A program made the position numbers and the translations under genes. Positions 279 to 30,327 of a DNA stretch of 62,519 nt are shown here, one piece after another. This DNA comes from an uncultured Erysipelotrichaceae bacterium (GTDB taxonomy: Bacteria > Bacillota_I > Bacilli_A > RF39 > UBA660), in NCBI GenBank assembly GCA_902797995.1, contig CADBUX010000003.1, positions 1 through 62,519 on the forward strand. The letters are read 5' to 3'. The notes under the pieces are model-generated. The model was not told the origin of the DNA, did not search any database, and saw nothing but the letters and a program-made list of their open reading frames with translations. Numbering within the stretch: position 1 is the stretch's first letter; every line of letters starts with the position of its first letter.

Positions 279-901
279 TAAGTATTAAAAAATATAGTCA
301 TGCTAATTCTGTATATAAGTTCTGCAATATCATGAGTTACCATAATAGCTGTTTTTTTCTCATTTGTTATTATTTTTTTTAGATCATCAGATAGGGTAAG
401 TCTAGTTTGATAATCTAAGGCTGAGAATGGTTCATCTAAAAGAAGTATATCAGGATTAAGTGCTAGAGTACGAATAAGTGCTACTCTTTGTTTTAAACCT
501 CCAGATAAGCTATTTGGATAACTATTTATAAAATCTTTTAATCCATATTTGTTAAGTAATTTAATTACATTTTGTTTAGTTTCTATATTTAATTCTTTTT
601 TTATTTCAAGTCCTAAACAGGCATTATCAAGTACAGTTTTCCAAGGAAAAAGCGAATCTTCTTGTAACATGTATCCAATTTTAGGATTATCTTTATTAAA
701 TGTAATAGTTCCAGATGATTTATCTATCATATTAGATAGAATACTAAGTATGGTAGATTTTCCACAACCTGAAGGCCCTACTATAGAGATAAATTCATCT
801 TTTTTTACTTTAAAACTTATATCTTTTAAAGCTAGCAATTCTCTATCTTTATCGTGGTATATTTTACTTAGATTTTGTATTTCTAGTAAATTATTCTTCA
901 T
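278..901 (-). CDS. ABC transporter ATP-binding protein (nitrate/sulfonate/taurine NitT/TauT-like), short at 207 aa
   Basis: Walker A GPSGCGKST, signature LSGGLKQR, Walker B LLLDEPFSALD, H-loop VTHD. The protein ends about 20 aa after the H-loop. Confidence 0.9.
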   Translation of the reverse strand: MKNNLLEIQNLSKIYHDKDRELLALKDISFKVKKDEFISIVGPSGCGKSTILSILSNMIDKSSGTITFNKDNPKIGYMLQEDSLFPWKTVLDNACLGLEIKKELNIETKQNVIKLLNKYGLKDFINSYPNSLSGGLKQRVALIRTLALNPDILLLDEPFSALDYQTRLTLSDDLKKIITNEKKTAIMVTHDIAELIYRISMTIFFNT

Positions 902-15529: not shown

Positions 15530-15545
15530 ATAGGTGGTGATTTTT

Positions 15546-16304
15546 ATGGACATAGAAATAAAAGATTTAACTGTTAAAGTTAATGAAATAACAGTTTTAG
15601 ATAATTTTAATTTAAGTATTGGTAAAGGTGAAATTCATGTTATTATGGGTCCAAATGGAGTGGGGAAAAGTACTTTATCTAAAGTAATTCTTGGTTCTTC
15701 AGATTATAATGTTATATCAGGTGATATTTTAGTTGATGGTAAATCTATACTTAATTTATCTACTGATGAAAGGGCAAGACTTGGTATATTTTTATCCTTT
15801 CAAAATCCTATTGATATCGAAGGAGTTACTAATCAGGAATTTTTAAAAATGGCTATTAACTCTAATCGTGAAACGCCAATAGGTCTTTATGATTTTATAA
15901 AAGAACTTGAACAAAATTATAAGGATCTAAACTTTTCTAAAGAAATGATGCATCGTGGAATAAATCAAAACTTTTCTGGTGGTGAAAAGAAGAAAAATGA
16001 AATCATTCAAATGAAAACATTAAAACCAAAGTTTTTAATTTTAGATGAACTTGATTCTGGTCTTGATGTTGATAGTTTGGATTTAGTATGTAAAAATGTT
16101 TTAGAATATCATGAAAAGGAAAAGTGTTCTATTCTTTTGATTACTCATTATAATAGAATACTTGATAAAATAAAACCAGATTATGTTCATGTATTAGTAG
16201 ACGGGAAGATTGTGGAAACAGGAGATTATACTTTAGCAGATAAAATTGAGAAAAACGGATATAAAAGTTTCGAAAATAGTGCTAAGGTACTAAGAGAGGA
16301 TTAA
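15546..16304 (+). CDS. sufC: Fe-S cluster assembly ATPase SufC
   Basis: GPNGVGKST, FSGGEKKKNEI, LILDELDSGLD, ITHY. Start chosen at ATG 15546, downstream of the AGGTGG SD. Confidence 0.95.
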   Translation: MDIEIKDLTVKVNEITVLDNFNLSIGKGEIHVIMGPNGVGKSTLSKVILGSSDYNVISGDILVDGKSILNLSTDERARLGIFLSFQNPIDIEGVTNQEFLKMAINSNRETPIGLYDFIKELEQNYKDLNFSKEMMHRGINQNFSGGEKKKNEIIQMKTLKPKFLILDELDSGLDVDSLDLVCKNVLEYHEKEKCSILLITHYNRILDKIKPDYVHVLVDGKIVETGDYTLADKIEKNGYKSFENSAKVLRED

Positions 16305-16308
16305 TGTC

Positions 16309-17004
16309 ATGAATAAAATATTTATAGAGGAATTAACCTCAGAAAAAGATCTTTATTTAGAAGAAAGTACTATTGTTATAGTTAAAAGTAGTGATTGCAA
16401 GCTAAATTATTTTATAAAAGATGAAATAAACATATTTACACTTATTATGTCCTCTTCTGTAAAAGTTTCTTGTATGGTAGAATGTAATTCTATTTTTAAT
16501 ATGTTTTCTGTAAATAGTAGTTTAAGTGTTAATATTGATCTTTTAAATGATGATATTAACTATAGATATGCATATAGTACTATTAATAAAGATAATAATG
16601 ATTATGAAATTAATATAAATCATTTAGGGAATAATATAATAAGTAATATTACTAATCATGGGATTAATACTGAAGATAATAAATTATTATTTGTTATTAA
16701 TACTATAGTTCCTAAGAATTCTTTAAATATAACCACTAATCAAGATAGCAAAATAATAGCTTTAAAAGATAATAATGCTTCAATAAAGCCTAATTTACTT
16801 ATTGATAATGATGATATCGAAGCTAATCATGCTGCTTATATTGGAAGGTTTAAAGAAGAAGAGTTGTTTTATTTAATGACTAGGGGTATCAAAAAAGAAG
16901 ATGCAGTAGATTTAATGATTAAATCATTTTTAATTGGTAATATGGAGATAAATTTGGAAGAAAAAGAACTGATATTAGATACAATAAATGCGTATTGGAG
17001 GTGA
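16309..17004 (+). CDS. sufD: Fe-S cluster assembly protein SufD (short form, 231 aa)
   Basis: Position between sufC and sufS. C-terminal block EELFYLMTRGIKKEDAVDLMIKSFL is typical of SufB/D. Confidence 0.8.
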   Translation: MNKIFIEELTSEKDLYLEESTIVIVKSSDCKLNYFIKDEINIFTLIMSSSVKVSCMVECNSIFNMFSVNSSLSVNIDLLNDDINYRYAYSTINKDNNDYEININHLGNNIISNITNHGINTEDNKLLFVINTIVPKNSLNITTNQDSKIIALKDNNASIKPNLLIDNDDIEANHAAYIGRFKEEELFYLMTRGIKKEDAVDLMIKSFLIGNMEINLEEKELILDTINAYWR

Positions 17005-17008
17005 TTAA

Positions 17009-18205
17009 ATGAATAGAGAAGACTTTGAAATGCTTAAACAAGATATAGTTTATTTTGATAATAGTGCTACTACATTAAAGCCTAAAGCGGTTGTTGATGT
17101 GATAAATGATTATTACACAAGGTATACTTCAAATGCTCATAGGGGAGATTATAAAACAAGTTTAAAGGTTGATACTATGTATGAAAGCACTAGAGAAAAA
17201 GTAAAAACCTTTATAAATGCAAAATCTTCTAGTGAAATAGTTTTTACAAGTGGTACTACTGATTCACTTAATATGGTAGTATTTGGTTTTGCAAAAAATG
17301 TTTTAAATAAGGGCGATGAAGTAGTAATTACTAAAACTGAACATGCATCAAATGTTCTTCCATGGCTTGAACTTGAAGATGAAATAGGTATTAAAGTTAA
17401 GTATGCTCCTTTAGATGAAAATTTGAAATTACAATCTGAAGGTTTGAAAGAGGTTATTACTCCTAAAACAAAAATAGTATCTATTGCCCATGTTACTAAT
17501 ACTATTGGAGATGTACGTGATTTAGAGATAATTGGTAAATTTTTGAAAGAAAAAGGTATTTATTTTGTAGTAGATGCTGCTCAAAGTGCAGGTCATAGAA
17601 AAATAGATGTAGATAAGATGAATATAGATTTTCTAGCATTTTCAGGGCATAAGATGTTAGGTCCTACTGGTATTGGAGTTTTATATGGTAAGAAAGAACT
17701 TTTAGATAAAATGAGGCCTATGAAGTATGGGGGAGGAATGAATACTTTCTTTGAAAGTGATGGATCTCGTGAGTATAAAGATGTGCCTTTTAGGTTTGAA
17801 GCAGGTACTCAAAATATAGAGGGCGTAATAGGACTTGGGACTGCGATTGATTATTTAAATAATGTTGGACTTGAAATAATCGAAAAACATGAACATGAAT
17901 TAAGAACTTATTTAATTAGTAAATTAAAAGAAATAGAAAACGTAGAGGTATTGAATCCTAATTCAGATGCAGGTAATGTGTTATTTAATATAAAAGAAGT
18001 ATTTCCACAGGATACCGCGGTTTTTTTAGATCACTATAATATTTGTGTTAGAGCAGGTAATCATTGTGCTAAGCTTTTAAAAGATGAACTAGGAATTAAG
18101 AACACATGCCGTATATCTTTATATTTATATAATACTAAAGAAGAAATAGATAGATTAATCGAGGCTTTAAAGAATTCAAAAAATATATTTGAAGTGGTGA
18201 TATAA
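17009..18205 (+). CDS. sufS: cysteine desulfurase SufS
   Basis: PLP lysine context FSGHKMLGPTG, active-site region RAGNHCA, FDNSATT N-terminus. Confidence 0.95.
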   Translation: MNREDFEMLKQDIVYFDNSATTLKPKAVVDVINDYYTRYTSNAHRGDYKTSLKVDTMYESTREKVKTFINAKSSSEIVFTSGTTDSLNMVVFGFAKNVLNKGDEVVITKTEHASNVLPWLELEDEIGIKVKYAPLDENLKLQSEGLKEVITPKTKIVSIAHVTNTIGDVRDLEIIGKFLKEKGIYFVVDAAQSAGHRKIDVDKMNIDFLAFSGHKMLGPTGIGVLYGKKELLDKMRPMKYGGGMNTFFESDGSREYKDVPFRFEAGTQNIEGVIGLGTAIDYLNNVGLEIIEKHEHELRTYLISKLKEIENVEVLNPNSDAGNVLFNIKEVFPQDTAVFLDHYNICVRAGNHCAKLLKDELGIKNTCRISLYLYNTKEEIDRLIEALKNSKNIFEVVI

Positions 18206-18637
18206 ATGGATAAAGACTTAAAAAGAGAAATAATTTTAGATAACTATCAAAATCCTTATAATAAAAAAGAGATAGATGATGATTCTTATATAAAAATTAA
18301 TACTAATAATGAATCTTGTATCGATAATTTAGATATTTATTTTAGGGTAGAGGATGGCTTTATAAAAGATGCAGGATTTAATGGAGAGGCTTGTGCAATA
18401 TCTACAAGTGCTACTTCAATAATGCTTAGAAATTTGATAGGCAAAAGTGTAGAGTCTGTAAAAGAAATTTTAGTTAATTATCAAAATATGATTAATGAAA
18501 AGGAATATGATAAGGATCTTCTAAGAGATTTAAATGTTTATGATGAAATATATCTTCAACCTAATAGAAAGAATTGTGCTTTACTTCCTGCGAAAGCAAT
18601 AGATAAATTAATTAAGGAATTAGATAATGCAAGTTAA
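18206..18637 (+). CDS. sufU: Fe-S scaffold / sulfur acceptor SufU
   Basis: NPYNK, GEACAISTSATSIM and a conserved C-terminal Cys (NCALLP) are typical of SufU/IscU. Confidence 0.9.
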   Translation: MDKDLKREIILDNYQNPYNKKEIDDDSYIKINTNNESCIDNLDIYFRVEDGFIKDAGFNGEACAISTSATSIMLRNLIGKSVESVKEILVNYQNMINEKEYDKDLLRDLNVYDEIYLQPNRKNCALLPAKAIDKLIKELDNAS

Positions 18638-19934
18638 AGGTTTAGATGAGGATAAGGTAAGGCAAATTTCTAAGTTAAAAGGTGAAGATGAAAAGACTTT
18701 AGATTATCGCTTAGACTGTTTTAGAAAATTTAAAGAATTAGATCTACCAAAATTTGGGCCAAAACTTGATATTGATTTTGATAGTATTAATTATTACCAA
18801 TCTAGTGATGATAATCTTACTGATGATTGGGGAGAAATAAATCTAAAAACAAAAAAAGAACTTGATTCTTTAGGGGTAATCTCTTCAGAAAATTATTTAG
18901 ATGGAATTGGAGTTCAATATCAAAGTGAAGTTATATATCACAATATGCTTGAAGAACTTAAAGAAAAGAACGTTATTTTTACTTCAATAGAAAATGCATT
19001 TAAAAATCATCGTGATTTAATTGATAAATATTTTAGTAAATTAGTAAGACCTGAAGAAAATAAGTTTACAGCCTTAAATGGTGCAGTGTTCTCTGGTGGT
19101 AGTTTTATATATATTCCAAAAAATACTAAACTGGATCGTCCACTTCAAAGTTATTTTAGAATTAGTTCAAAAGATTTAGGACAATTTGAAAGAACTTTGA
19201 TTATTGTTGATGATAATAGTAGTCTTCATTATGTTGAAGGGTGTACTGCAAAGAATTATTCTAGTTCTAATTTGCATGCTGCAGTTGTTGAAATATATGT
19301 TGGAAAAAATAGTACATGCAGATATTCTACTATTCAAAACTGGGCTACTAATGTATATAATTTAGTAACTAAAAGAGCGATAGTTGAGGAAAATGGTACT
19401 ATGGAATGGATAGATGGTAATATAGGATCATTTAAAACTATGAAATATCCTTGTTCTGTTTTAAAAGGAGATAATTCACATGGGACTTGTGTAACTATTA
19501 GTGTTGCAGGACCTAATCAACACCAAGATAGTGGTGCTAAAATGATTCATATTGGTAAAAATACTACTAGTAATATCGTTTCTAAAAGTATTGCTCGTGA
19601 TGGAGGAGCTTCTGACTTTAGAAGTCTTGTTGATATAAAAAAAAGTGCAATTGGGGCTGAATCTATAGTAAAATGTGATACTCTAATACTTGATAAAGAA
19701 TCTAGTAGTTATGCTTATCCTACTAATAGAATTGGCAATAAAAGTAGCACTATAGAACATGAGGCGACTGTTTCAAAAATAAGCGAAGATAAACTATTCT
19801 ATTTAATGAGTAGAGGAATACCTAAAGAACGCGCTATTGAAATGATTGTTTTAGGTTTTACTGATAGATTTAAACAAGAACTTCCTATGGAGTATGCTGT
19901 TGAACTTAATCAGTTATTAAAGCAAAACTTATAA
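18627..19934 (+). CDS. sufB: Fe-S cluster assembly protein SufB
   Basis: Full-length SufB-like sequence: HYVEGCTA, QNWATNVYNLVTKRA, LFYLMSRGIPKERA. Confidence 0.95.
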   Translation: MQVKGLDEDKVRQISKLKGEDEKTLDYRLDCFRKFKELDLPKFGPKLDIDFDSINYYQSSDDNLTDDWGEINLKTKKELDSLGVISSENYLDGIGVQYQSEVIYHNMLEELKEKNVIFTSIENAFKNHRDLIDKYFSKLVRPEENKFTALNGAVFSGGSFIYIPKNTKLDRPLQSYFRISSKDLGQFERTLIIVDDNSSLHYVEGCTAKNYSSSNLHAAVVEIYVGKNSTCRYSTIQNWATNVYNLVTKRAIVEENGTMEWIDGNIGSFKTMKYPCSVLKGDNSHGTCVTISVAGPNQHQDSGAKMIHIGKNTTSNIVSKSIARDGGASDFRSLVDIKKSAIGAESIVKCDTLILDKESSSYAYPTNRIGNKSSTIEHEATVSKISEDKLFYLMSRGIPKERAIEMIVLGFTDRFKQELPMEYAVELNQLLKQNL

Positions 19935-19990
19935 AAAATATAAAAACTATGAAATAGATATATTGATGTGGAAATCTATTTTCAAAATAA

Positions 19991-20019
19991 AAATTTCCTT
20001 TTAGGGAAATTTTTATTTT
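19991..20019 (+). terminator. intrinsic terminator of the suf operon
   Basis: Stem aaatttcc (19991-19998) / ggaaattt (20005-20012) followed by tttatttt. Confidence 0.65.
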
Positions 20020-20107
20020 GCTATTAAAACTCTTTTTTAAACATTGAAAATGGCGATTTGCATCTAAAAATAAAACCTTTTATAGTGATAAAAAGGAGGT
20101 GATTTTG

Positions 20108-20446
20108 GTGCTTAATCAAATAGTTTTAGTGGGGCGTTTAGTAAGAGATCCTGAAGTTAAAAAAGCTAAAAATGGTAATTCATATTCTCATATTACTTTA
20201 GCAGTTCCTAGAAGTTATAAAAACGTCGATGGTGAGTATGAAACTGATTTTCTTGATTGTACTTTATGGCAACTAATGGCTACTAATACTAAAGAATATT
20301 GCAAAAAAGGTGATATTGTTGGTGTTAAAGGCAGAGTCGAGTCTAAGGTATATGAAAAAGATGATGAAAAGAAATATGTAACTGAAATTATTGCAGAAAA
20401 AGTTACTTTTCTTTCATCAAATAAAACAGAAGCAGAAGAAGTATGA
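20108..20446 (+). CDS. ssb: single-stranded DNA-binding protein, OB-fold only (SsbB-like, no acidic C-terminal tip)
   Basis: LNQIVLVGRLVRDPE..., TDFLDCTLW, VGVKGRV. Start taken at GTG 20108, 8 nt after GGAGG. Ends ...NKTEAEEV without a DDDxPF tail. Confidence 0.85.
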   Translation: MLNQIVLVGRLVRDPEVKKAKNGNSYSHITLAVPRSYKNVDGEYETDFLDCTLWQLMATNTKEYCKKGDIVGVKGRVESKVYEKDDEKKYVTEIIAEKVTFLSSNKTEAEEV

Positions 20447-20490: not shown

Positions 20491-20518
20491 TTTACAAATT
20501 TTGTGTTTTATGTATAAT
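20491..20518 (+). promoter_or_regulatory. sigma-A-like promoter upstream of the small precursor ORF
   Basis: TTTACA (20491-20496), 16-nt spacer, TATAAT (20513-20518). It lies between the ssb terminator and the precursor SD. Confidence 0.5.
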
Positions 20519-20538: not shown

Positions 20539-20691
20539 ATGATAAAATCTGATAACGTTAAAGAAATGAATGTTAAAGATAAGACGAATTCAATACAAAA
20601 CGAAGAAAAAGAATTATCTGAATCTAAGCAAAAACAACTAAAGAAATTAGAGTATTTATTGCAATGTGCTTCTGCTGAGTGTGGATGGTAA
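20539..20691 (+). CDS. candidate RiPP precursor peptide (50 aa): MIKSDNVKEMNVKDKTNSIQNEEKELSESKQKQLKKLEYLLQCASAECGW
   Basis: Hand translation; the ORF is too short for the supplied track. AAGGAGG (20525-20531) sits 7 nt before the ATG. The Lys/Glu-rich leader-like region has no Cys. The only Cys (x2) and Trp residues are in the last 8 residues. It lies directly upstream of the radical SAM operon. Confidence 0.6.
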   Translation: MIKSDNVKEMNVKDKTNSIQNEEKELSESKQKQLKKLEYLLQCASAECGW

Positions 20692-20698
20692 TGAGTTT

Positions 20699-20725
20699 GG
20701 CCTATATATAATATAGGCCGTTTTT
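20699..20725 (+). terminator. hairpin (partial terminator/attenuator) between the precursor ORF and the radical SAM genes
   Basis: Perfect 9-bp stem ggcctatat (20699-20707) / atataggcc (20711-20719), loop ata, followed by gttttta. Confidence 0.55.
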
Positions 20726-20742
20726 ATATTAAGGAGTAATTT

Positions 20743-21771
20743 ATGGAAACAAATGTATTAGTAGATATGAGATCATTATCTTTTATGATTACTGATAAAT
20801 GTAATTTAAAATGTAGTTTTTGTAGCAAAAATGCTGACTTTGCTAATTCTAGATTTATGGATCCTTCTTTTATTGATAAAACTATAAAAGATGCTCTGAA
20901 ATGGGCAGATATTAAGATTATTAACTTAACTGGAGGAGAAGCATTATTGCATCCTAAATTAGATGATATTTTATCAATTATTGATTCATATGGACTTCAA
21001 GCAAGGATTAATACTAATGGAACTCTGTTTAATGATAAGATGATTAATATGCTTAACAAACATAACGCTAAGATGTTTACAATAAGTTTAGATAGCTCAG
21101 ATGCAAAAAAACACGATACAATAAGAGGAATTGATGGAGCTTTTAATAAAACTGTTGAAGGTATAAAAAGGGGAGTTAAGGAGGGCTATAAAATATTTGT
21201 TAAGGCTACTGTTTCTGATGAAAATGTAGATGATATTTATGATTTGATGAAATTTGTAGATGATTTGGGTATATATGGTTTTAGTTTTGGGAGAACAATT
21301 CCTGTTGGTAGAGGAGAAACATATAATTATGCCACAAAAGATTTCTTGAAAAAGTACTTTGATATGGGTAGAAAAACAAGTGAGTATGCACTAACAAGTA
21401 AACTGGAGTTTTTAATTGATGATCCTTTGCGATTTAAATTCGATTGTAGATCTAAAAAGTTACTTGAGCAAAATGATATAAGTGAACTATGGGGTGGTTG
21501 TAGTGCCGGATGTAATTTTCTATATGTAAATATGGATCTTGATGTGTTATCATGTCCTGTTCTTTTAGAACCATGTGGTAATTTGAAAAATAATACTTTA
21601 GAAGAAATATGGAAAAACTCTAACCAATTAATGGAATTTAGGACTCGCATTCACTTAAAAGGTAAATGTGGAAAATGTCAATATAAGAATATATGTGGAG
21701 GTTGCAGGGCATATGCGCTTGCAATTACAAATGATTCACTTGGAGAGGATGCTTTTTGCAAAAGAATATAA
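20743..21771 (+). CDS. radical SAM enzyme with a C-terminal SPASM-type auxiliary Fe-S domain
   Basis: CNLKCSFC (CX3CX2C, codons from 20800), GGEALLHP SAM-binding block. The C-terminal Cys cluster is GGCSAGC...SCP...PCG...GKCGKCQYKNICGGC...FC. Confidence 0.9.
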   Translation: METNVLVDMRSLSFMITDKCNLKCSFCSKNADFANSRFMDPSFIDKTIKDALKWADIKIINLTGGEALLHPKLDDILSIIDSYGLQARINTNGTLFNDKMINMLNKHNAKMFTISLDSSDAKKHDTIRGIDGAFNKTVEGIKRGVKEGYKIFVKATVSDENVDDIYDLMKFVDDLGIYGFSFGRTIPVGRGETYNYATKDFLKKYFDMGRKTSEYALTSKLEFLIDDPLRFKFDCRSKKLLEQNDISELWGGCSAGCNFLYVNMDLDVLSCPVLLEPCGNLKNNTLEEIWKNSNQLMEFRTRIHLKGKCGKCQYKNICGGCRAYALAITNDSLGEDAFCKRI

Positions 21772-24700
21772 TGAAAGTATTGTATATTCATCCAGATACT
21801 AGTGAATTGCGTGAGTCCCAAATCACTATTCCTATTGGAATTGTTTCATTGAGTAAGTTAATTAAAAAAACGGATTTAAATATTGAATATAAGGGAGTCA
21901 ATATACCGATTGAAAAAAAATTAGATCCTTTGTTTTCAATTGGAAAGTACTTGAACAAGGAAATGCCAGATGTTGTTTTAATAGATTTGCATTGGATGAT
22001 TTATTCATATACATCAATTGAGCTAACTAAAATAGTTAAAGACATTAATTCAAACTGCATTACAATTCTTGGTGGTATAACTGCAACAATTTATGCTGAT
22101 GAAATATTAAAAAATTTTAAAACTGTTGATTATATTACTAGGGGTTTTACCGAGGAATGTTTGCCTTGTTTATTAAAGGCAATAATAAGTGAATCAGAAG
22201 TTGATAATATACCAAATTTATCATTTAGAAGGAATAACAAAGTAATTCATAATGAAATTAAGATGATTGATTCTAATGCTTATTATAATTATGATGATTA
22301 TGATTTCTTATTGCATTATGAACAAATGCTAGAAGAACAATCTTCTCACATGGCTGGTAATATTAAAAAGAAGTTAGCCTGGATTCCTACCGGAAGAGGT
22401 TGTCAATATAACTGTTCTTACTGTGGTGGAAATAATAAGATGTTTAAAGAAAAGTTTTGTGTTAACAAAATGATACCTTATAATCCAAATGGTATAGCTA
22501 GTTGTATTGAAAAACTTTATAAAAAATATTCTATAGATATGTTTGGGATTACTCATGATTTTGGTATATTTTCAGAAGAATACTATAATGACATATTTGA
22601 TAATTTATCTAAATTAAGTTTTAAACCTGCGATATATAACTATTTGTTTCAGTTGCCATCAAATGATTATTTTAAAAAATACATGGATATAATTAATCAA
22701 AAAGATAGTATTATTGGATTATCGGTTATTTGTGGTAATGAAAAAGATAGAATAAGAAATGGTAAAGTATTCACTAATAAAGAATTATTTAATTTTTTGG
22801 AATTTTTGACAAACTATGATACAAAAGTTGAACTTTATTTTATTGTTAATCCATATATTGGCGATCAAAATTATCGTGATACTTTAAAATTGATTGAGAA
22901 CATTTTGAAAAAGTACAAATCACGTATGAATTTGAGTGTTTCTGCTAGTTATGAGGTAATACAACCATATTCAAAAAAACAAGAAAATAATAAGACAGTA
23001 TTTACAGGTTTTATGGATTATTATTATAGATATTCAAATAAGTTTTTAGATGATGTACGAAATGGAGAAAATATTGAATATTTAATTGGGGATAAAGATT
23101 ATGATGATCAAGTATATGATAAAATTGTGCAAATAAAAGAATTGGTTAACAAATATGAAAATAGTGTTGATATTTTATATTTATATCCACCTTCAGGTAG
23201 ACAAAAAGAATTTGAAAAAGCTTTAGGCCTTGCCTATATTGAAGCGTATTTGAAACAATATGGATATAAGTCAGTGCAGTTCATACCTAATAATTTAAAT
23301 TATGAAGAAATAATTAAGTCAATTAAAGAAATCAATCCAAAAACAATAGGTATAAGTACATATGATATGAATTATTACTATGCAAAATTACTTTCTAATA
23401 GATTGAAGAAAGAATTAAATGTTCCAATTATAATTGGAGGTCCTACTGGTACTTTTTCGTTTAATTTAGTTTTTAAAGAATGTCCAAGTGTTGATTATAT
23501 TTTGCGTGGTTATGGGGAAGAGTCTACAAAAAAACTCTTAGATTATTTAATAAAAGGAAGAGGTAATTTAGAAAATATACCTGGACTTGTTTATAGGAAT
23601 AACAATGAACTCAAAGAAAACAAATTATATGAGTTGCCACAAGACATTGATTTTTTTCCATCTCCATATTTATCTGATATTGGTTTTCTTCCAGAAAGAA
23701 AAATTGTTTTGACTTCTCGTGGATGTTTCCATAACTGTGTGTATTGTAATTGTGCTGCAATGTGTAATAAGAAAGTATATTTTCACTCTGTTAATAGAGT
23801 AATATCAGAATTAAAGTATATTTCTGATAATGAACCAGGATCATATGTATTAATTGGTGATGATGCTTTTACGTTAAATATAGAAAGAGCTAAGCAAATA
23901 TGCAAGCGAATAATAGATGAAAAAATAAATCTTAAACTGTTTTGTGAAACTAGAGTAGATAGAGTAGACTATGAATTGCTTAATTTAATGAAACAAGCAG
24001 GTGTTATTAAAATAGATTTTGGATTGGAAAGTAGTAATCCTAAAATATTACGAAACATTAAAAAAGTTTTCTATAATCCAAATGATGAGAATTATACAAG
24101 TGAGAGACAGTTTTTAAGAAATTTAAAGGATGTTGTTTCATATTGCAAAAAGTTGGGAATGGATCCGATGGTAAATATTATTAGTGGTTTGCCTGGAGAA
24201 ACTATCGATGACGCTAAAGAAACACTAGATTTTATAAAAAAGTTAGATATTAATTCATATTCGCATAATTATTTGAAATTATATTCAGGCACAAGTTTAT
24301 ATAATGAACATAGAAAGTATAAATACAAATTATGTCATAATGTATTTTCTTTACCATTAATAATCAAGTATCCTTTTGATATAAAAAAAATAACTCCTTT
24401 AAATAATTCAGTTAGTAGAACAGATATTGTCAGAATGAAAAAGGAATTTATAAAACATTGGATGGCTAAAGATTTTTGGACTTGTGATAATATTGAAAAT
24501 CTTGCTCCCCAAGATCTTGATATAAATGAAGAATTATATTTTTATGTTAAAAACAAACAAGAAAAAGAAAAAGTGTTAGGCTTTATTATCAAAAAGGAAA
24601 TTCCATCAAACAATATTGTGTTTATTGAAGATAAAAATGGTGAATTGATATGCTCTAATTATCTTGATCAAGAAAATTATATAAAAATAATAAAGATAAA

Positions 24701-25064
24701 GAATAATGCTTTTGATGTTCCTCAAAACTATTATACTTTGTTACTTGTAGAAAAAATGAATGATACTATAATGAATAGATTTAAAGAATTAAAAGTAAAT
24801 CCTTTTATTAATAGATTTGTATTAATTGAAGGTATTGATAAAGATAAATCTATTAATAATGTAATATATGATTATTGCAATACTCATAATTCTGATAAGA
24901 AGTTGTTATTAAAGTTTTCAAAATATGTCAACTATGAGTTAGATAATCTTGATATTTCTGTTTTTCAGGATATAATATATAATGATATTTTTACTGATGA
25001 AGAAATTGCGATAATTGAAAAGTTTTTGAAGTATTATTTGTTAGGAGTTGATGATGATGAATAA
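21756..25064 (+). CDS. fusion of two B12-binding-type (class B) radical SAM modules plus a roughly 250-aa C-terminal region of unknown function. The start may be TTG 21756 or ATG 21771.
   Basis: There are two separate modules. Each has a Rossmann-like N-terminal part (ITILGGITATIY...ITRGFTEE and TIGISTYD...IIIGGPTGTF...ILRGYGEE). Each part is followed by a CX3CX2C motif: GRGCQYNCSYCGG at 22401-22424 and SRGCFHNCVYC at 23724-23747. ATG 21771 overlaps the upstream stop (TAATG). Confidence 0.8.
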   Translation: MQKNIMKVLYIHPDTSELRESQITIPIGIVSLSKLIKKTDLNIEYKGVNIPIEKKLDPLFSIGKYLNKEMPDVVLIDLHWMIYSYTSIELTKIVKDINSNCITILGGITATIYADEILKNFKTVDYITRGFTEECLPCLLKAIISESEVDNIPNLSFRRNNKVIHNEIKMIDSNAYYNYDDYDFLLHYEQMLEEQSSHMAGNIKKKLAWIPTGRGCQYNCSYCGGNNKMFKEKFCVNKMIPYNPNGIASCIEKLYKKYSIDMFGITHDFGIFSEEYYNDIFDNLSKLSFKPAIYNYLFQLPSNDYFKKYMDIINQKDSIIGLSVICGNEKDRIRNGKVFTNKELFNFLEFLTNYDTKVELYFIVNPYIGDQNYRDTLKLIENILKKYKSRMNLSVSASYEVIQPYSKKQENNKTVFTGFMDYYYRYSNKFLDDVRNGENIEYLIGDKDYDDQVYDKIVQIKELVNKYENSVDILYLYPPSGRQKEFEKALGLAYIEAYLKQYGYKSVQFIPNNLNYEEIIKSIKEINPKTIGISTYDMNYYYAKLLSNRLKKELNVPIIIGGPTGTFSFNLVFKECPSVDYILRGYGEESTKKLLDYLIKGRGNLENIPGLVYRNNNELKENKLYELPQDIDFFPSPYLSDIGFLPERKIVLTSRGCFHNCVYCNCAAMCNKKVYFHSVNRVISELKYISDNEPGSYVLIGDDAFTLNIERAKQICKRIIDEKINLKLFCETRVDRVDYELLNLMKQAGVIKIDFGLESSNPKILRNIKKVFYNPNDENYTSERQFLRNLKDVVSYCKKLGMDPMVNIISGLPGETIDDAKETLDFIKKLDINSYSHNYLKLYSGTSLYNEHRKYKYKLCHNVFSLPLIIKYPFDIKKITPLNNSVSRTDIVRMKKEFIKHWMAKDFWTCDNIENLAPQDLDINEELYFYVKNKQEKEKVLGFIIKKEIPSNNIVFIEDKNGELICSNYLDQENYIKIIKIKNNAFDVPQNYYTLLLVEKMNDTIMNRFKELKVNPFINRFVLIEGIDKDKSINNVIYDYCNTHNSDKKLLLKFSKYVNYELDNLDISVFQDIIYNDIFTDEEIAIIEKFLKYYLLGVDDDE

Positions 25065-26061
25065 ACAAATATTGATTATTGAAATAACATCATATTGTAA
25101 TAGTAGATGTGAAGATTGCTTAAGAGCTGGTTTAAATGATTCTGATTATATGCTTTCATTTAAGGACATTAAAACTGCTATAAAAGAAATAAAAAAGTTT
25201 TCCAATAATTATACTGATTTCGAATTAAAGATTTCTGGGGGAGAGCCTACAATATGGTTAGATAAAACTGAAAAAAAAGATATTACTGATATTTTGTTAG
25301 AATGTGAAAATAATAATCTAAATTATGCTTTAGTTACAAATGGAAAAGTATTTTCAAATAAAGAGCAGTGTAAAGATTTTTTTGATAAAATAAAGTATAA
25401 AGGTATTCACCATTTGAAACTATTTATTACTATTGATAAGTATCATGGAAATTATACAAGTGATGATTCTAATATAATACTTGATAATGTTTTAGAACTT
25501 AATGAATTGGAAAGTTTGGAGTGTTATGTTCAATCTACAGTAACGAAAAGAAATCAAGATAATTTATCACTTGATTTTATTGAAAAGTATACAAAAAAGG
25601 GAATAAAATTTATGTTAAATCCTTTACTTCCTTGGGGAAGAGGAAAGAACCTTATAGATGTGGTCCCATATGTGAATTTAAATAATAACGATAAATCAAC
25701 TTTAGGAGATTATGAAAATTATTATTATGTTCTTGGTAAAGTCAACAATATTTGGGATACTTATGATGAATTTTTGAATATGAATAATTTAGAGACGTTA
25801 AAACGCCTTAATTGTTGTGGTAAAACCATTACTCTTATGGGAAACAAGTATTATTATTCAATGCCTTGTTCTGGCAAAGAGGAATTTTGTTTTGCGACTA
25901 TAGGTAATTTGGACTATAAAAAGTATTTAGTTTTTAAATCAAATAATAAAACGATAAAAAAAATGGCAAATAACAAAATTGCCAATGAGGATTTAATTGA
26001 TAAATGTCCAATTGGATATGGAATTTGTGGGCTTTGTATGGAGAACGATTATGAATTATAA
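25048..26061 (+). CDS. radical SAM enzyme with a Cys-rich C-terminal (SPASM/twitch-like) region
   Basis: CNSRCEDC (codons 25096-25119), ISGGEPTIW. C-terminal Cys residues: NCCGK...PCSGKEEFC...DKCPIGYGICGLC. Overlaps the upstream gene by about 14 nt. Confidence 0.8.
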   Translation: MMMMNKQILIIEITSYCNSRCEDCLRAGLNDSDYMLSFKDIKTAIKEIKKFSNNYTDFELKISGGEPTIWLDKTEKKDITDILLECENNNLNYALVTNGKVFSNKEQCKDFFDKIKYKGIHHLKLFITIDKYHGNYTSDDSNIILDNVLELNELESLECYVQSTVTKRNQDNLSLDFIEKYTKKGIKFMLNPLLPWGRGKNLIDVVPYVNLNNNDKSTLGDYENYYYVLGKVNNIWDTYDEFLNMNNLETLKRLNCCGKTITLMGNKYYYSMPCSGKEEFCFATIGNLDYKKYLVFKSNNKTIKKMANNKIANEDLIDKCPIGYGICGLCMENDYEL

Positions 26062-27139
26062 GCAAAAAAAATTAGCGAGTTTTATTGTGGATTATAGCTT
26101 AAATATTAAGCCTCAAGAAAAAGTTTTTATTAATTATGTCGGTTCAAATAAAGAATTTTTAGAGACGCTTAAATATACAATAGAGGAAAAAAATGCTATT
26201 CCAATTGTTTTTGATATGACTCCATATGAGGAGATTGAATTAATAAAATCGCTTAATGAAGAAGATATTGACCTTTTAATTGATAAAAGCATTGAGCTTA
26301 TAAGTAAATGTGATTCATTTATTTCTTTACTTGAAGATTCTGATTTTATACTTGATAATAAATATCAATATCAAAGTGATTTGTATTATAAAAAATATAA
26401 AAAAGTTATTAGAGACTATCGATTAAAAAAATGTAAATGGATTGGTTTAAGATTACCTAGTGTTCAATTAGCAAGAAAATTTAATATGTCTTATGAAGAA
26501 TTTTGCTCTTTTTATTATGATGTTTGTGGAATTGATTACAAAAGATTAAAGGATGATTATCTATGGCTTGAGGAGTTGATGTCAAATACTAATCATATAG
26601 AGATTAGTAGCGTTGATACTAATATTTCGTTTGATAAAGCAGGAATCTCTGCTCATATATTATCAGGTGAAAAAAATTTACCTGATGGAGAAATATATAC
26701 AGCACCAATTAAAGACACGGTAAATGGTACCATCAGATTTAACGCTGATTCAGTACAAAATGGTTTTAAATTTAAGGACATAAGTTTAAAATTTGTAGAT
26801 GGTAAGATTGAAGAGTTTAATTCTAATAATAATGAATTGTTTAATAATATAATCAATTCTGATGGTGGTAGTAAATATGTTGGAGAATTTGCGATAGGCT
26901 TAAATGATAAAATTAGTGTTCCACATGGCGTTATATTGTATGATGAAAAGATTTTAGGTAGCATTCATTTCGCTTTAGGACAAGCATATGATGATGCATA
27001 TAATGGAAATGATTCATGTTTACATTGGGATTTGGTTCAGGTTCAAAAACCAGAATATGGCGGTGGAAAAGTTATTTTTGATGACGAAATTATTATGCAG
27101 GATGGTATAATTAAAAAAAATAGAGGGAGGAAAAAATGA
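26051..27139 (+). CDS. aminopeptidase, M29 (AmpS/PepS thermophilic metalloprotease) family-like
   Basis: N-terminus KKLASFIVDYSLNIKPQEKVFI, PDGEIYTAP, SKYVGEFAIGLN, SIHFALGQAY and HWDLV resemble M29 conserved blocks. ATG 26051 overlaps the upstream stop. Confidence 0.75.
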   Translation: MNYKQKKLASFIVDYSLNIKPQEKVFINYVGSNKEFLETLKYTIEEKNAIPIVFDMTPYEEIELIKSLNEEDIDLLIDKSIELISKCDSFISLLEDSDFILDNKYQYQSDLYYKKYKKVIRDYRLKKCKWIGLRLPSVQLARKFNMSYEEFCSFYYDVCGIDYKRLKDDYLWLEELMSNTNHIEISSVDTNISFDKAGISAHILSGEKNLPDGEIYTAPIKDTVNGTIRFNADSVQNGFKFKDISLKFVDGKIEEFNSNNNELFNNIINSDGGSKYVGEFAIGLNDKISVPHGVILYDEKILGSIHFALGQAYDDAYNGNDSCLHWDLVQVQKPEYGGGKVIFDDEIIMQDGIIKKNRGRKK

Positions 27140-27609
27140 ATTTTGATAAAATAAAAGTGGATTGTATGACACAAGAATATGCAAAGCAAATTACAAAATG
27201 GAGATACAGAGGAAGGTATTCTTCATATAATTTGCCTTGTTATGAAGAGTGTGTTCAAAAAAAATATGGAATAACTAGAGAAGATACAAAAGATAATTAT
27301 CTTGTATATCTTTTAGATGATGAAGTGGTGTTCTATTTTAACGGTAAGCCAATGGATAATAATAGAATATATATTGGTGTTGGATTAAAGCCAAAGTATT
27401 GTGGCAAAGGTTATGGAAGCCATTTTTTAAAAGATAGTATGAGAATAATGAAGGAGAAATATCCAAATTCTGTATTCTTTCTTGAAGTTAGAAGTTGGAA
27501 CAAAAGAGCAATAAAGTCTTATAAAAAAATAGGCTTTAAAATTACTAATATTGTTATGTCGAAAGATAGATTAGGAAACGATACTGAATTCGTCGAAATG
27601 GAATTATAA
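27136..27609 (+). CDS. GNAT family N-acetyltransferase
   Basis: Acetyl-CoA-binding block GLKPKYCGKGYGSHFL and the following NKRAIKSYKKIGF. ATGA overlap with the aminopeptidase stop. Confidence 0.85.
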   Translation: MNFDKIKVDCMTQEYAKQITKWRYRGRYSSYNLPCYEECVQKKYGITREDTKDNYLVYLLDDEVVFYFNGKPMDNNRIYIGVGLKPKYCGKGYGSHFLKDSMRIMKEKYPNSVFFLEVRSWNKRAIKSYKKIGFKITNIVMSKDRLGNDTEFVEMEL

Positions 27610-27627: not shown

Positions 27628-27656
27628 TTGACATTTTCTTATAATTTATCTATAAT
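27628..27656 (+). promoter_or_regulatory. consensus sigma-A promoter for helD
   Basis: TTGACA (27628-27633), exactly 17-nt spacer, TATAAT (27651-27656). AAGGAG SD before ATG 27686. Confidence 0.65.
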
Positions 27657-27685: not shown

Positions 27686-29860
27686 ATGGACTATATCTAT
27701 GATGAAGAGAATAAATATTTAGATAAAGTGAATAAGGCTTTAAAAGAAGAACTTGATGAAACTAATCAAGCTCTTAAGGCAGAAGCTGAAAAGATAATAA
27801 GCGTAGATGAAGCAAAAAGAGGAGCTCAATTGCTTAAAGATAGTTTAATGAAAATGTATGCTGAAAGAGTATATAATTTGACAAAAGTTGCTAGTTCTCC
27901 TTATTTTGGCAGGATGGATTTTACGCGTGCAGGTGAAAATGAGACTCAGAAAATATATATAGGAAGAACATCTTTGACAAATGATAACGAAGTATTAATT
28001 GTTGATTGGAGAAGTCCTATTTCCAGTATGTATTATAATAGTAATAAGGGTTATTCTCTATATGAAGCTCCCGAAGGAATTATAAAAGGGTTTGTAGAGT
28101 TAAAGAGACAGATTATTATTGAAAATTATAAAATTAAAAGTATTTTAGACACAGATATAGTAACTAATGATGAAATATTACAAGAGTATTTAAATGTACA
28201 TGCTGATGATAAAATGAAGAATATTATTGCTTCTATTCAAGATGAACAAAACAAAATTATTAGAAAACCTTTGGATAAAAATATAATAGTTCAAGGTGTT
28301 GCTGGTAGTGGCAAAACATCTGTTGCTTTACATAGAATTGCTTATTTGTTATATAACGCTAAAGAAACTGCTAAAAGTGATACTTTTCTTTTGTTAGGAC
28401 CTAACAATTACTTTTTAGATTATATTTCATCTGTTTTGCCCGATCTTGAAACTGAACCTATTTCACAAAAAAGGTATATTGATTTTACATCTGATTATAT
28501 TGAACAAAAAATTTCATTATCAAATAATACTGAGAAATTTAAAAAACAAAAAGAGTTAGACACATATAATAAAGTAAGGCTATTTAAAAATTCATTAGAA
28601 TATAAGGATGCAATTGAAGCATTTATGAATGACTATTTTAATGGTAGTTTTATTGATAAGGGAATTATCTTTGATGGTGTAGAAGTATTTGATAGAGATT
28701 TCATAATTTCTGCATTAACTTCTGGTGCTTTTTCTAAATTGAATTATGATCGAGCAAAAGAGATAACATTGCGAAGTTTTATAGATAGACAAAATCGTAT
28801 TTATAATTATTTAAAAAATAAATATCGCACTATTTATACTTCTTCAGATGCTAGTGTAGAGGAAAAAGAAGCCGCTAAAAGAAAAACTTTAGAAATATAT
28901 GATTTGATATATAAAAATGGCGAAAAGATAATAAAGGATTATTATAAGAAACTTGATGCTAAAATTACTGATATATATAAGAAGTTTCTTATCTCATCTG
29001 ATAATTATATTAAATGTTTAAATAGCGAAGAGATGCAAATGTTTAAGAGGGTTAGTATTAATAATAGTGGTAGATTAAAATTATCTGGAGAGGATTTGCC
29101 TGCTTTAAATTATATGAAATATCTTTTATCTGGGAAAAAAACAAAATATAGACAAATTGCAATTGATGAAGCGCAAGATTATGGTTTGTTCCATTATTAT
29201 GCTTTACTAAAAGCAAATCCTGATGCTAAATTCTCAATATATGGTGACTTAGCTCAAACAATATATCAATATACCAATATTACAAATTGGGAAAAAGTAG
29301 TTGATCAAATCTTTGATGGTGATTGTGAACTTTTAAATTTAAACAAAAGTTATCGTACCACTAGAGAGATAACTGATAATGCAAATGCTATTTTGAATCA
29401 TTTAAAACTAGAAAAAGCAAATTCGGTTGAAAGGCACGGAGAAACTGTTGAGTATAACAATGCTAAGTACTCTGAAGCAGAATTTCGCGATGTGGTTAAC
29501 GATTGGATTAATAGTGGATATAAAAGTGTTGCTATTATATGTAAAACAGAAAAGGAAGCTTTAAATCTATATAAAAATTTACTTAAAAGTAATATTTCCA
29601 TTTCATATCTAGATGATAAAACTTCAAAATATGAAAGTGGTGTGTATGTAACAACAAGTATTGCAGCAAAAGGTTTAGAATTTGATGCTGTAATTATAAA
29701 TGATGCTTCATGTACTGTTTATAATTCATCTAATAATATGGATATGCATTTATTATATGTTGCATTAACGAGGGCACTACACGAATTAAAAGTTCTTTAT
29801 AGTAATGAGATTACTGAACCTTTAAAAGAAAATGCACAGTCTAGAAATAGACAAAGATAG
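27686..29860 (+). CDS. helD: UvrD-like helicase of the HelD type (helicase IV / RNA polymerase recycling ATPase)
   Basis: N-terminal coiled coil followed by SPYFGRMDF, Walker A GVAGSGKTSVALHRIAYLLY, IDEAQD, and C-terminal YVALTRALHEL. Confidence 0.85.
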   Translation: MDYIYDEENKYLDKVNKALKEELDETNQALKAEAEKIISVDEAKRGAQLLKDSLMKMYAERVYNLTKVASSPYFGRMDFTRAGENETQKIYIGRTSLTNDNEVLIVDWRSPISSMYYNSNKGYSLYEAPEGIIKGFVELKRQIIIENYKIKSILDTDIVTNDEILQEYLNVHADDKMKNIIASIQDEQNKIIRKPLDKNIIVQGVAGSGKTSVALHRIAYLLYNAKETAKSDTFLLLGPNNYFLDYISSVLPDLETEPISQKRYIDFTSDYIEQKISLSNNTEKFKKQKELDTYNKVRLFKNSLEYKDAIEAFMNDYFNGSFIDKGIIFDGVEVFDRDFIISALTSGAFSKLNYDRAKEITLRSFIDRQNRIYNYLKNKYRTIYTSSDASVEEKEAAKRKTLEIYDLIYKNGEKIIKDYYKKLDAKITDIYKKFLISSDNYIKCLNSEEMQMFKRVSINNSGRLKLSGEDLPALNYMKYLLSGKKTKYRQIAIDEAQDYGLFHYYALLKANPDAKFSIYGDLAQTIYQYTNITNWEKVVDQIFDGDCELLNLNKSYRTTREITDNANAILNHLKLEKANSVERHGETVEYNNAKYSEAEFRDVVNDWINSGYKSVAIICKTEKEALNLYKNLLKSNISISYLDDKTSKYESGVYVTTSIAAKGLEFDAVIINDASCTVYNSSNNMDMHLLYVALTRALHELKVLYSNEITEPLKENAQSRNRQR

Positions 29861-29987
29861 AGAAAAGTGTTTGAATTAATTTGTTTTCTGTTTTTAAATA
29901 AACTACTATATAAAATGATATAATGTTTTATCGTTTTGTTAGAAAATGAAATTATTTCTGATAAATCTAAAAAAAGAGCAAAAATTG

Positions 29988-30016
29988 TTGAAATTGCTTT
30001 TTTTTTATGCTACAAT
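29988..30016 (+). promoter_or_regulatory. sigma-A-like promoter with an extended -10
   Basis: TTGAAA (29988-29993), 17-nt spacer, TGcTACAAT (30008-30016). Confidence 0.5.
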
Positions 30017-30044
30017 TTTTATATATAGTAGAGGGAGGTCAAAT

Positions 30045-30314
30045 ATGGAAGATAAGAAAACCTTAACAATTAATAAATTAGATGGTACTACTGAAGAAGT
30101 AGAAGAAGTAATTAGTTTTGAATTTAATGATACGAAAAAACGTTATGTTGTTTATACTAAGAATGAAGTTGATCAAAATGGTAACATTACAATATATGTT
30201 ACAGAAGTAGTTAAAGATGAACATGGAACAAGATTTCTTGGCGTGGCAACAGATGAAGAATGGGCAAGAATTAAAGATGTTTTAAGAAGTCTTGCTAAAA
30301 GTGAAGAAGCGTAG
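30045..30314 (+). CDS. DUF1292 family protein (89 aa)
   Basis: Pattern DG.EE.EVI..F......YVVY..NE.D..GN..IYV and a EW..I..VL tail typical of DUF1292. AGGGAGG SD before ATG 30045. The upstream part of the 29946 ORF is probably untranslated. Confidence 0.7.
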   Translation: MEDKKTLTINKLDGTTEEVEEVISFEFNDTKKRYVVYTKNEVDQNGNITIYVTEVVKDEHGTRFLGVATDEEWARIKDVLRSLAKSEEA

Positions 30315-30327
30315 GGAGGTTTATTAT

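Follow-up and report, generated by a model that had tools for sequence, protein, structure and literature searches.

A fused pair of radical SAM modules in a six-gene operon

We analyzed a 62,519-nucleotide stretch of DNA from an uncultured Erysipelotrichaceae bacterium (GenBank assembly GCA_902797995.1, contig CADBUX010000003.1, positions 1 to 62,519 of the forward strand; hereafter the window), in which a long gene for two class B radical S-adenosylmethionine (SAM) modules lies close to the gene for a short peptide, the likely precursor of a peptide that is ribosomally synthesized and then modified post-translationally (RiPP). Class B radical SAM enzymes carry a B12 (cobalamin)-binding domain; known members methylate unactivated carbons, contract rings and form C–C bonds, and the class is among the natural-product enzymes hardest to assign by sequence. 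The long gene is the third of a tightly packed six-gene operon (20539–27609) that encodes the precursor, a radical SAM/SPASM enzyme, the fusion, a third radical SAM protein, an M29 aminopeptidase and a GNAT acetyltransferase. The enzyme genes overlap or nearly so. The features of the operon, all on the plus strand, are:

20491 to 20518, plus strand: promoter-like site TTTACA-16-TATAAT, 11 of 12 consensus positions matched; identified by consensus match only.
20539 to 20691, plus strand: precursor peptide gene, 50 amino acids, MIKSDNVKEMNVKDKTNSIQNEEKELSESKQKQLKKLEYLLQCASAECGW and a stop codon; ribosome-binding site AAGGAGG before the ATG at 20539.
20698 to 20720, plus strand: attenuator- or terminator-like hairpin and T-run in the gap between the precursor and the first enzyme gene; 10-bp stem with 4 GC pairs, then TTTTTATATT.
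20743 to 21771, plus strand: radical SAM/SPASM enzyme, 342 amino acids; CNLKCSFC at residues 20–27 and no N-terminal extension.
21771 to 25064, plus strand: fusion of two class B-type radical SAM modules (parts listed below).
25051 to 26061, plus strand: third radical SAM protein, about 336 amino acids; CNSRCEDC at residues 17–24 (counted in the reading frame from 25048), SGGEP and a cysteine-rich C terminus.
26051 to 27139, plus strand: M29-family aminopeptidase, about 362 amino acids; PF02073 at 124 bits, in a reading frame that opens at 25997.
27136 to 27609, plus strand: GNAT N-acetyltransferase, 157 amino acids, the last gene of the operon; PF00583 at 44.8 bits.

A first-pass annotation of the window, made from its letters alone, had described the fusion as a 1102-amino-acid protein. 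The window's open reading frame (ORF) listing does contain a long plus-strand frame of that length (21756 to 25064, TTG start), but the product is likely to have 1097 amino acids and to begin at the ATG at 21771. This start is preferred because the ATG and the upstream gene's stop codon share the sequence TAATG, because the 1097-residue product is identical (100%) to a public record (P0001, on a 7126-base ENA contig), and because the fusion homologues likewise start with MK..ILYIHP. Residues of the fusion are numbered from ATG 21771, and its parts are:

21771 to 23165, plus strand: module 1, residues 1–465 (PF02310, TIGR04190, AlphaFold2 secondary structure, invariant motifs).
21771 to 22205, plus strand: B12-binding domain of module 1, about residues 1–145 (PF02310).
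22371 to 23000, plus strand: radical SAM-type core of module 1, about residues 201–410, with CX3CX2C at 22401–22424.
Residues 411 to 465, plus strand: helical tail or linker of module 1.
23166 to 24320, plus strand: module 2, residues 466–850 (PF02310, PF04055, PDB sequence and Foldseek matches).
About residues 466 to 610 and 640 to 850, plus strand: B12-binding domain and canonical radical SAM core of module 2, with CX3CX2C at 23724–23747.
24321 to 25064, plus strand: C-terminal region of module 2, residues 851–1097 and the stop codon (AlphaFold2 model, family-specific profile).
24417 to 25061, plus strand: family-specific C-terminal domain, about residues 883–1097 (AlphaFold2 model).

The two class B-type modules of the first-pass annotation, each a B12-binding domain followed by a CX3CX2C motif, stood up to profile searches, with two separate PF02310 matches above the cut-off. 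The cluster motifs lie exactly at the coordinates given there: CQYNCSYC at 22401–22424 (residues 211–218) and CFHNCVYC at 23724–23747 (residues 652–659). All six cysteines of the two motifs are invariant in every aligned homologue, down to 30% identity. By its domains the fusion would be classed as a class B radical SAM protein, clearly for module 2 and with reservations for module 1. It scores below the curated threshold of every named NCBIfam family compared (TIGR04190, TIGR03975, ApyD and BchE). Cobalamin binding in class B enzymes is usually of the base-off, His-off type, and the DxHxxG motif is absent from the fusion. Among the homologues, identity to the window protein is 61–64% in module 2, 44–54% in module 1 and 28–41% in the C-terminal region.

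A short precursor with an invariant C-terminal core

The last eight residues of the precursor in the window, CASAECGW, form a conserved core. Nine precursors, including that of the window, occupy the same position in their loci and all end with E[LIV]E[YE][LI]L[RQAT]-C[ADV][ST][ACVM]ECGW followed by a stop codon; the core consensus C-x-[ST]-x-ECGW is present in 9/9, in loci whose enzymes share 30–57% identity. The N-terminal parts of these peptides vary in both sequence and length (29 to 51 residues). Because invariant ends combined with variable N-terminal parts are the standard signature, the small gene is read as a ribosomal precursor with a C-terminal core. The RiPP setting that had been proposed from the window alone is thereby borne out, with a precursor kept beside the enzymes in nine loci, and by the genomic definition the cluster is a predicted RiPP pathway. 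The core strings CASCECGW, CASAECGW and SCECGW were not found in the literature searched.

We considered whether the enzymes might instead act on a lipid or a small molecule, with the small ORF an incidental neighbor. TIGR04190-type and other class B enzymes often have such substrates, and two distant module 1-like proteins are found in non-peptide settings, one in an aminoglycoside-like cluster (P0031) and one beside an oligopeptide ABC transporter (P0055). However, a small ORF with an invariant ECGW end and a variable N-terminal part recurs in nine loci across enzyme identities of 30–57%, the small ORF in the window has a strong ribosome-binding site and a promoter-like site, and a SPASM maturase, an aminopeptidase and a major facilitator superfamily (MFS) transporter are typical companions of RiPP genes. 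A non-RiPP pathway is therefore very improbable.

Module 2 resembles canonical class B methyltransferases

Module 2 is predicted to be a canonical methyltransferase-like class B enzyme. It matches the PF02310 B12-binding profile with 56.2 bits (residues 484–587; cut-off 32.1) and the PF04055 Radical_SAM profile with 85.6 bits (residues 647–822; cut-off 29.5). Like that of module 1, its B12-binding domain has Rossmann-like secondary structure in the AlphaFold2 prediction. Compared with PDB sequences it finds CysS (expect value, E, of 5e-15), AprD4, MgmA, TokK and TsrM, and a Foldseek search with the model of the full-length fusion returned MgmA, TokK, TsrM, CysS and OxsB at E of about 1e-13. 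Conserved motifs include YDxNYYY, GGPTxTF, SRGCxxNCxYCNC, GDDAFT, CETRxDR, DFGLES, NIIxGLPG and GLPGE. Its NCBIfam matches are to TIGR03975 (139.6 bits against a cut-off of 281.85), ApyD (NF050148; 147.1 against 750) and BchE (TIGR02026; 167.4 against 481.35), with HpnJ and PhpK as other matches below cut-off. Stand-alone module 2 proteins have 641–762 amino acids (646 in P0014).

The cluster motif of module 2 extends to CxxxCxxCxCxxxC at 23724–23765 (CFHNCVYCNCAAMC). The cysteine of the CNC segment is present in all relatives, including the distant loci L007 and L012, and the last cysteine is found only in the close family. The extra cysteine could be an additional ligand or a catalytic residue.

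Module 1 is a divergent relative of TIGR04190

The B12-binding profile also recognizes module 1 (PF02310, 34.7 bits, residues 18–131; cut-off 32.1). Its best curated match is to TIGR04190 of NCBIfam, a model of B12-binding plus radical SAM proteins, and the alignment spans both parts of the module (179.3 bits, residues 20–409, profile positions 36–428 of 554). The full protein scores 234.1 bits, and neither it nor module 1 reaches the cut-off of 500. True TIGR04190 members rank near the bottom of a search with the module 1 profile. Module 1 is thus best placed, from these scores, as a divergent relative of TIGR04190. A module 1 profile run against PDB sequences found only the cluster loop of CysS (E 0.034), so there is no template at the sequence level; in the AlphaFold2 prediction, six beta/alpha units come after a beta/alpha pattern of Rossmann type. 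In relatives, module 1 also occurs as a protein of its own, with 461–486 amino acids in L005, L006, L007 and L012 and further examples in P0024, P0025 and P0026; those of L005 and L007 match TIGR04190 as well.

Seven module 1 sequences, down to 30% identity, share the invariant motifs YIHP, DxHWxxYSY, GG, LAWIPxxRGCxxxCxYCGGN (the cluster loop), FGxTH, FQxP, GxExxRxxNGKxF and ExxQPxS. The motifs past the cluster loop differ from the canonical SAM-binding ones. Since the motifs as a set are invariant to 30% identity, module 1 is not a decaying duplicate; it is likely to be catalytically competent.

A different possibility is that module 1 is an inactive partner, serving as a scaffold, substrate holder or cobalamin carrier, so that the fusion would carry out only one B12-dependent reaction. 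The Radical_SAM profile of Pfam barely registers module 1 in the window protein, for several stand-alone module 1 proteins the annotation precomputed with Pfam names B12-binding alone, and the barrel beyond strand beta-2 does not align to module 2. Module 1 is also the more divergent of the two (44–54% identity, compared with 61–64% for module 2), and the two are always fused or neighboring. Against this, the cluster loop is invariant in all seven sequences, and a distantly related fusion (P0006, described below) retains the three cysteines with their RGC and CGG context. Polar residues in the predicted barrel are invariant too (FGxTH, GxExxRxxNGK and ExxQPxS), most of about 100 wider relatives of module 1 score as Radical_SAM in Pfam, and the AlphaFold2 model has a full core of six beta/alpha units. 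We consider an inactive module 1 quite unlikely.

The modules are distant homologues that also occur as separate genes

Aligned to each other by BLASTP, the two modules share 26% identity over 224 residues, and hhalign relates them with a probability of 99.5 (columns 2–288 to 7–264), but only over the B12-binding domain, the cluster loop and strand beta-2. They are homologous but distant and belong to different class B subfamilies. The first-pass annotation had called them copies in tandem and had proposed either two distinct modifications or an iterated one. Duplication is not what we found, given the 26% identity, the different subfamilies and the separate genes of most relatives; and because the protein joins two different enzymes, two distinct reactions are favored over iteration by duplicated modules.

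The modules are always adjacent or fused. They are fused in five proteins (the window protein/P0001, P0002, P0003, P0004 and P0005), whose linkers differ in length and sequence; P0002–P0005 are 45–49% identical to the window protein. In at least seven relatives they are split into adjacent or overlapping genes, and four such loci could be viewed at the DNA level:

L005, Clostridium metagenome-assembled genome (MAG): proteins of 465 and 641 amino acids from overlapping genes, with an AAGGAGG ribosome-binding site of its own; the closest to the window (57% identity).
L006, Bacilli MAG: genes overlapping by ATGAATAA.
L007 to L009: proteins of 486 and 762 amino acids.
L012: a protein of 472 amino acids, then a separate module 2 gene; the contig ends inside module 2.

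The junctions of the split genes come in three geometries, and the genes have proper starts. The junctions of the window and of L005 are a 2-nt indel apart. In a small neighbor-joining tree of module 1, the window sequence joins the split L005 and L006 rather than the other fused proteins, and because of this grouping the fused or split state appears to have changed more than once.

That the fused and split forms differ by just a 2-nt indel in an A-rich stretch might suggest an assembly or frameshift artefact, and a recent internal duplication carrying out the same methylation iteratively would also yield a protein with two modules. Neither accommodates the rest of the data: the modules are 26% identical and belong to different subfamilies, five distinct fused proteins have linkers of differing length and sequence, the exact window protein exists on the public record (P0001, on the 7126-base ENA contig), and the split genes have proper starts in three geometries. 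As far as can be told from these sequences both ideas are already refuted, and we give them next to no weight. The frame at 21771–25064 thus reads as a true fusion, joining in frame two neighboring class B (B12-binding-domain) radical SAM genes that are not identical.

Module 2 ends in a domain without recognizable relatives

The first-pass annotation could place no motif in the last 250 or so residues, and our searches agree: the region has no match in Pfam, NCBIfam, PDB sequences or Foldseek. An exhaustive search of 1.84 billion representative sequences with a profile of the region gave ten hits, all of them in this family or its distant variant. The region always accompanies module 2 and is therefore the C terminus of module 2 itself rather than an appendage of the fusion. 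Its first 30–55 residues are strongly conserved (SYSHNYL..Y.GT...LP...YP.D...N.V.R) and are modeled poorly by AlphaFold2; we take them to continue the radical SAM domain, which leaves residues ~883–1097 as the separate domain.

An AlphaFold2 model of residues 826–1097, computed from a 10-row alignment, has a predicted local distance difference test score (pLDDT) of 78.6 and a predicted template modeling (TM) score of 0.72, with pLDDT of 80–94 over residues 883–1097. The modeled order is a long helix, a beta-alpha unit, four strands, a short helix and strand, and a four-helix bundle, which we read overall as an alpha/beta subdomain plus a helical bundle that ends in the conserved KFLKYYLLG. Foldseek searches with this model gave a best E of 0.1 (probability 0.07, TM score below 0.25) in the PDB and a best E of 0.28 in BFVD, and among the 50 matches listed for each library there was neither a structure containing a RiPP recognition element (RRE) nor a class B C-terminal domain.

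This region had been put forward as a candidate for leader or substrate binding, perhaps by an RRE or PqqD-like winged helix. Pfam, NCBIfam, PDB profile and Foldseek searches for such a fold were negative, although a small embedded winged helix-turn-helix could still escape Foldseek; with E allowed up to 10, none of five scanned family members matched PqqD (PF05402). A broader form of the proposal is that residues ~883–1097 are a cryptic equivalent of an RRE that recognizes the leader peptide on behalf of all four radical SAM domains of the operon. No protein of the operon matches PqqD or another RRE, and the other two radical SAM proteins have their cluster motifs right at the start. Within the fusion this region is the least conserved (28–41%, compared with 61–64% for module 2), which parallels the variable leaders, and in its model three antiparallel strands in a row precede helices. 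In addition, the radical SAM/SPASM enzyme of the P0006 system has an N-terminal extension of about 80 residues that the window enzyme does not have. However, the PF05402 result in five members, the empty NCBIfam and PDB sequence searches and the Foldseek matches listed (50, best E 0.1, TM score below 0.25, no RRE structure) all speak against it, as does a stretch of about 85 residues, eight of them cysteines, that is inserted here in the distant variants P0017 and P0018 and would suit a metal or cluster site better than a peptide clamp. Many class B RiPP enzymes also need no RRE. A leader-recognition role is on balance unlikely.

In solved class B structures (OxsB, TsrM, TokK and Mmp10), C-terminal domains cover the active site and shape the substrate pocket. 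Because those domains cap the active site, contact with the core peptide would be the most economical role for the C-terminal domain of module 2, a role we infer by analogy.

The eight-cysteine insertion (CxxCxxxC ... CxxCx5CxxC) separates the beta-rich part from the helical bundle and falls at about residues 575–665 in P0018 (encoded at 3190–5478 of L007). An auxiliary metal or Fe-S site is one possibility; the idea that it is a SPASM domain was rejected, as Pfam at E up to 10 gave Fer4_8 alone, at 0.099, and so leaves it unassigned. The clade of the window has neither the insertion nor a conserved set of cysteines in the C-terminal region. The tail of the fusion, ..KFLKYYLLG (25026–25046), resembles the conserved precursor leader segment ..KLEYLLQ (20650–20667), which may be coincidence because the distant L007 system does not show it.

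A distant fusion with a different candidate precursor

A second, distant fusion, P0006 (1073 amino acids), is encoded on the metagenomic contigs L010 (4931–10222) and L011. It joins a module 1-type domain to a BchE-like class B module and is without the C-terminal domain of the window protein. Its TIGR04190-like first domain is 27% identical to module 1 over 445 residues, and the two share IDLHW, GGITAS, RGCxxxCxxCGG, LFQLPS and GNExxRxxGKxFTN. A radical SAM/SPASM gene lies immediately upstream, as in the window; the two enzymes are 23% identical, and that of P0006 carries the N-terminal extension mentioned above. A neighboring protein of 208 amino acids, which has eight repeats of GFWQR and ends with GFWQRYY, has the look of a RiPP precursor with several cores. 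The P0006 system would thus have a repeat-type candidate precursor in place of the single C-terminal core of the window; both contain tryptophan, and the Gly/Trp common to the CGW and GFWQR substrates is a weak hint that Trp could be a common target. The independent fusion in P0006 is Rosetta-stone evidence of the classic kind for joint action of the two enzyme types. A downstream 347-amino-acid protein was examined as a possible homologue of the third radical SAM protein and rejected, as no homology was found. The neighborhood of P0006 looks archaeal (CofH_C, MTHFR, GCHY-1 and inositol-1-P synthase).

Other genes of the operon and its surroundings

The radical SAM/SPASM enzyme matches PF04055 with 80.7 bits and the SPASM profile PF13186 with 27 bits (cut-off 21.5). 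Its NCBIfam hits are all below cut-off, the best being of the AhbD/NirJ2, ScmF, WgkB and PapB types; across the whole operon, none of the proteins attains the cut-off of a curated NCBIfam model. The third radical SAM protein scores 26.8 bits with the Pfam Radical_SAM profile, just under the cut-off, and 24.7 bits with Fer4_12, and its ATG at 25051 is preceded at 5–8 nt by AGGAG. The observation in the first-pass annotation that these neighbors have no N-terminal RRE is correct, as their first cluster cysteines are residues 20 and 17. The start of the aminopeptidase, ATG 26051, was inferred from the lengths of its homologues and their alignment.

The radical SAM/SPASM enzyme is kept in every related locus, the third radical SAM protein in all those with enough sequence, and the GNAT protein in the close ones. 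L001–L006 have the same gene set, with the M29 aminopeptidase present in six of seven close loci; in L004 the contig stops within a truncated gene that follows GNAT. An MFS transporter replaces the peptidase and GNAT in the distant L007, and in L012 an MFS gene lies upstream and the contig ends before the position of the aminopeptidase.

A perfect consensus promoter at 27628–27656 opens the next transcription unit. Directly behind it, at 27686–29860 on the plus strand, is a gene for a HelD-like UvrD-family helicase (724 amino acids), which also follows the cluster in L001 (14174–16414) and L006 (7332–9539), at 34–41% identity; L005 is without it. Proteins of the HelD type bind RNA polymerase, and some of them give resistance to rifamycins. 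Its place next to the cluster could be a matter of self-protection or just of synteny. Between the helicase and the pyruvate:ferredoxin oxidoreductase gene, two ORFs of 122 and 398 amino acids (29946–31488, plus strand) have no Pfam match at E 1e-5.

Immediately upstream of the cluster, at 15534–20446, lie a complete Suf operon for Fe-S cluster assembly (SufC, SufD-like, SufS, SufU and SufB) and a gene for single-stranded DNA-binding protein. The enzymes encoded downstream of it require four Fe-S clusters at the least and probably more. The adjacency looks incidental, because related loci have other upstream genes. Farther away, a 1063-amino-acid protein (48349–51540, plus strand) combines Peptidase_M23, SpoIID and a C39-like peptidase in an unusual arrangement of cell-wall or sporulation type, unrelated to the cluster. 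The window as a whole has a GC content of about 26%, two tRNAs and no rRNA. Taken by themselves, the GC content, the pyruvate:ferredoxin oxidoreductase and SpoIID genes and the Clostridium MAG that holds the closest relative would tentatively hint at a clostridial Firmicute.

Discussion

Our preferred reading is that a fused pair of class B modules acts in a RiPP operon, in which four radical SAM domains would act on one octapeptide core. The two radical SAM enzymes without a B12-binding domain would install cross-links using the two invariant cysteines, a candidate being a thioether that links Cys1 to Glu5 within C-X3-E. Each class B module would make its own, different and probably cobalamin-dependent modification, at least one of them likely a C-methylation. 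Modules 1 and 2 would work as a physical pair, which would explain why they are always neighbors and have been repeatedly fused or split. The last ~215 residues of module 2 would form an active-site cap and substrate-contact domain rather than a PqqD-type RRE. Finally, the M29 aminopeptidase would trim the leader down to the modified core and the GNAT protein would acetylate the newly exposed N terminus. For this reading, with the mechanism as proposed, we estimate a probability of roughly 0.6.

Several observations weigh against it. AprD4 has a B12-binding domain and works without cobalamin, so such a domain is no guarantee of cobalamin use; the cobalamin dependence of the modules and methylation by them are predictions from their domains. 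No specific chemistry can be transferred to them, because all NCBIfam matches are far below the curated cut-offs. Module 1 has a Pfam Radical_SAM score of just 9.5 bits (E 1.4), and the canonical GGE, ribose and GxIxGxxE motifs could not be identified in it by eye; as its strands beta-3 to beta-6 are also unaligned to module 2 in hhalign, SAM cleavage by this module is putative. The AlphaFold2 model of the full-length fusion, with a moderate pLDDT of 64.5, is too weak for reading contacts between the modules. The neighbor-joining tree of module 2 disagrees in detail with that of module 1, which makes the number of fusion or fission events uncertain. The proposed cross-links, like the functions given to the peptidase and the GNAT protein, are drawn from analogy.

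A further hypothesis is that the module pair is an obligate two-subunit or fused catalyst that, together with the SPASM enzyme, performs a new cobalamin-dependent chemistry on a Gly/Trp motif (..CGW-COOH in the window, GFWQR with P0006). This is a tentative proposal, possible but well short of probable. If true, it would define a new RiPP class whose signature enzyme has a C-terminal domain with a fold absent from the PDB.

In the preferred reading, two class B enzymes that are repeatedly fused or adjacent are a natural Rosetta stone, arguing that they act as a pair; if the pairing is real, this would be the first described two-module cobalamin radical SAM system, and the P0006 family suggests that the principle extends past this clade. 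With four radical SAM domains directed at eight residues, the predicted product is a small peptide of anaerobic Firmicutes that bears modifications very densely. The core, C-x-[ST]-x-ECGW, is small and sharply defined, so its chemistry should be easily read by mass spectrometry. The subfamily of module 1 has no solved structure and has non-canonical SAM motifs, and the C-terminal domain is confidently modeled and has no structural relative in the PDB or BFVD. Thousands of uncharacterized radical SAM RiPP clusters exist, and we regard this one as a good discovery lead rather than a conceptual surprise.

Comparison with known systems

The family is very rare, with about a dozen sequences among 5.8 billion proteins; a search of these with the whole protein gave four full-length homologues besides the window's own. 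A scan of 185,579 species genomes gave two loci, and a scan of JGI metagenome contigs with the family alignment gave no relatives. Literature searches returned no characterized tandem or fused class B enzyme and nothing on this family, on TIGR04190/Ta0216 or on an M29 peptidase with a cobalamin radical SAM RiPP; a lead that TIGR04190 might correspond to the archaeal GDGT ring synthases was set aside. The precursor family, the tandem class B enzyme and the C-terminal domain are new to the curated libraries and the literature searched; the enzyme classes themselves are familiar.

Module 2 has the same order of B12 Rossmann domain and CX3CX2C core as CysS, TokK, TsrM, the PoyC-type TIGR03975 enzymes and the MgmA/Mmp10 type, and like PoyB/C and the bottromycin methyltransferases it adjoins a ribosomal precursor. 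Unlike the characterized class B methyltransferases, it is far below their curated cut-offs, has a C-terminal domain that matches none of those solved, and is fused to a class B module of another subfamily. Compared with the Ta0216-type proteins of TIGR04190, module 1 scores 179 bits, whereas a true member (P0008) reaches 663 (cut-off 500), and it is without the last ~125 profile positions.

The cluster differs from known radical SAM RiPP pathways in having four radical SAM domains, two of them class B, and no detectable RRE. We know of no characterized radical SAM RiPP with an M29 aminopeptidase and a GNAT protein as a tailoring pair. With the sactipeptide, ranthipeptide, streptide and tryglysin types it shares a short precursor, a variable leader, a downstream radical SAM/SPASM enzyme and a peptidase in the operon, and the precursor has a C-terminal core as in mycofactocin and pyrroloquinoline quinone biosynthesis. 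An alignment of the window's radical SAM/SPASM enzyme to the PapB model runs from end to end and scores 84.5 bits (cut-off 340). PapB-type enzymes cross-link Cys-X3-Asp/Glu motifs, and the core in the window has a C-X3-E spacing that resembles these substrates.

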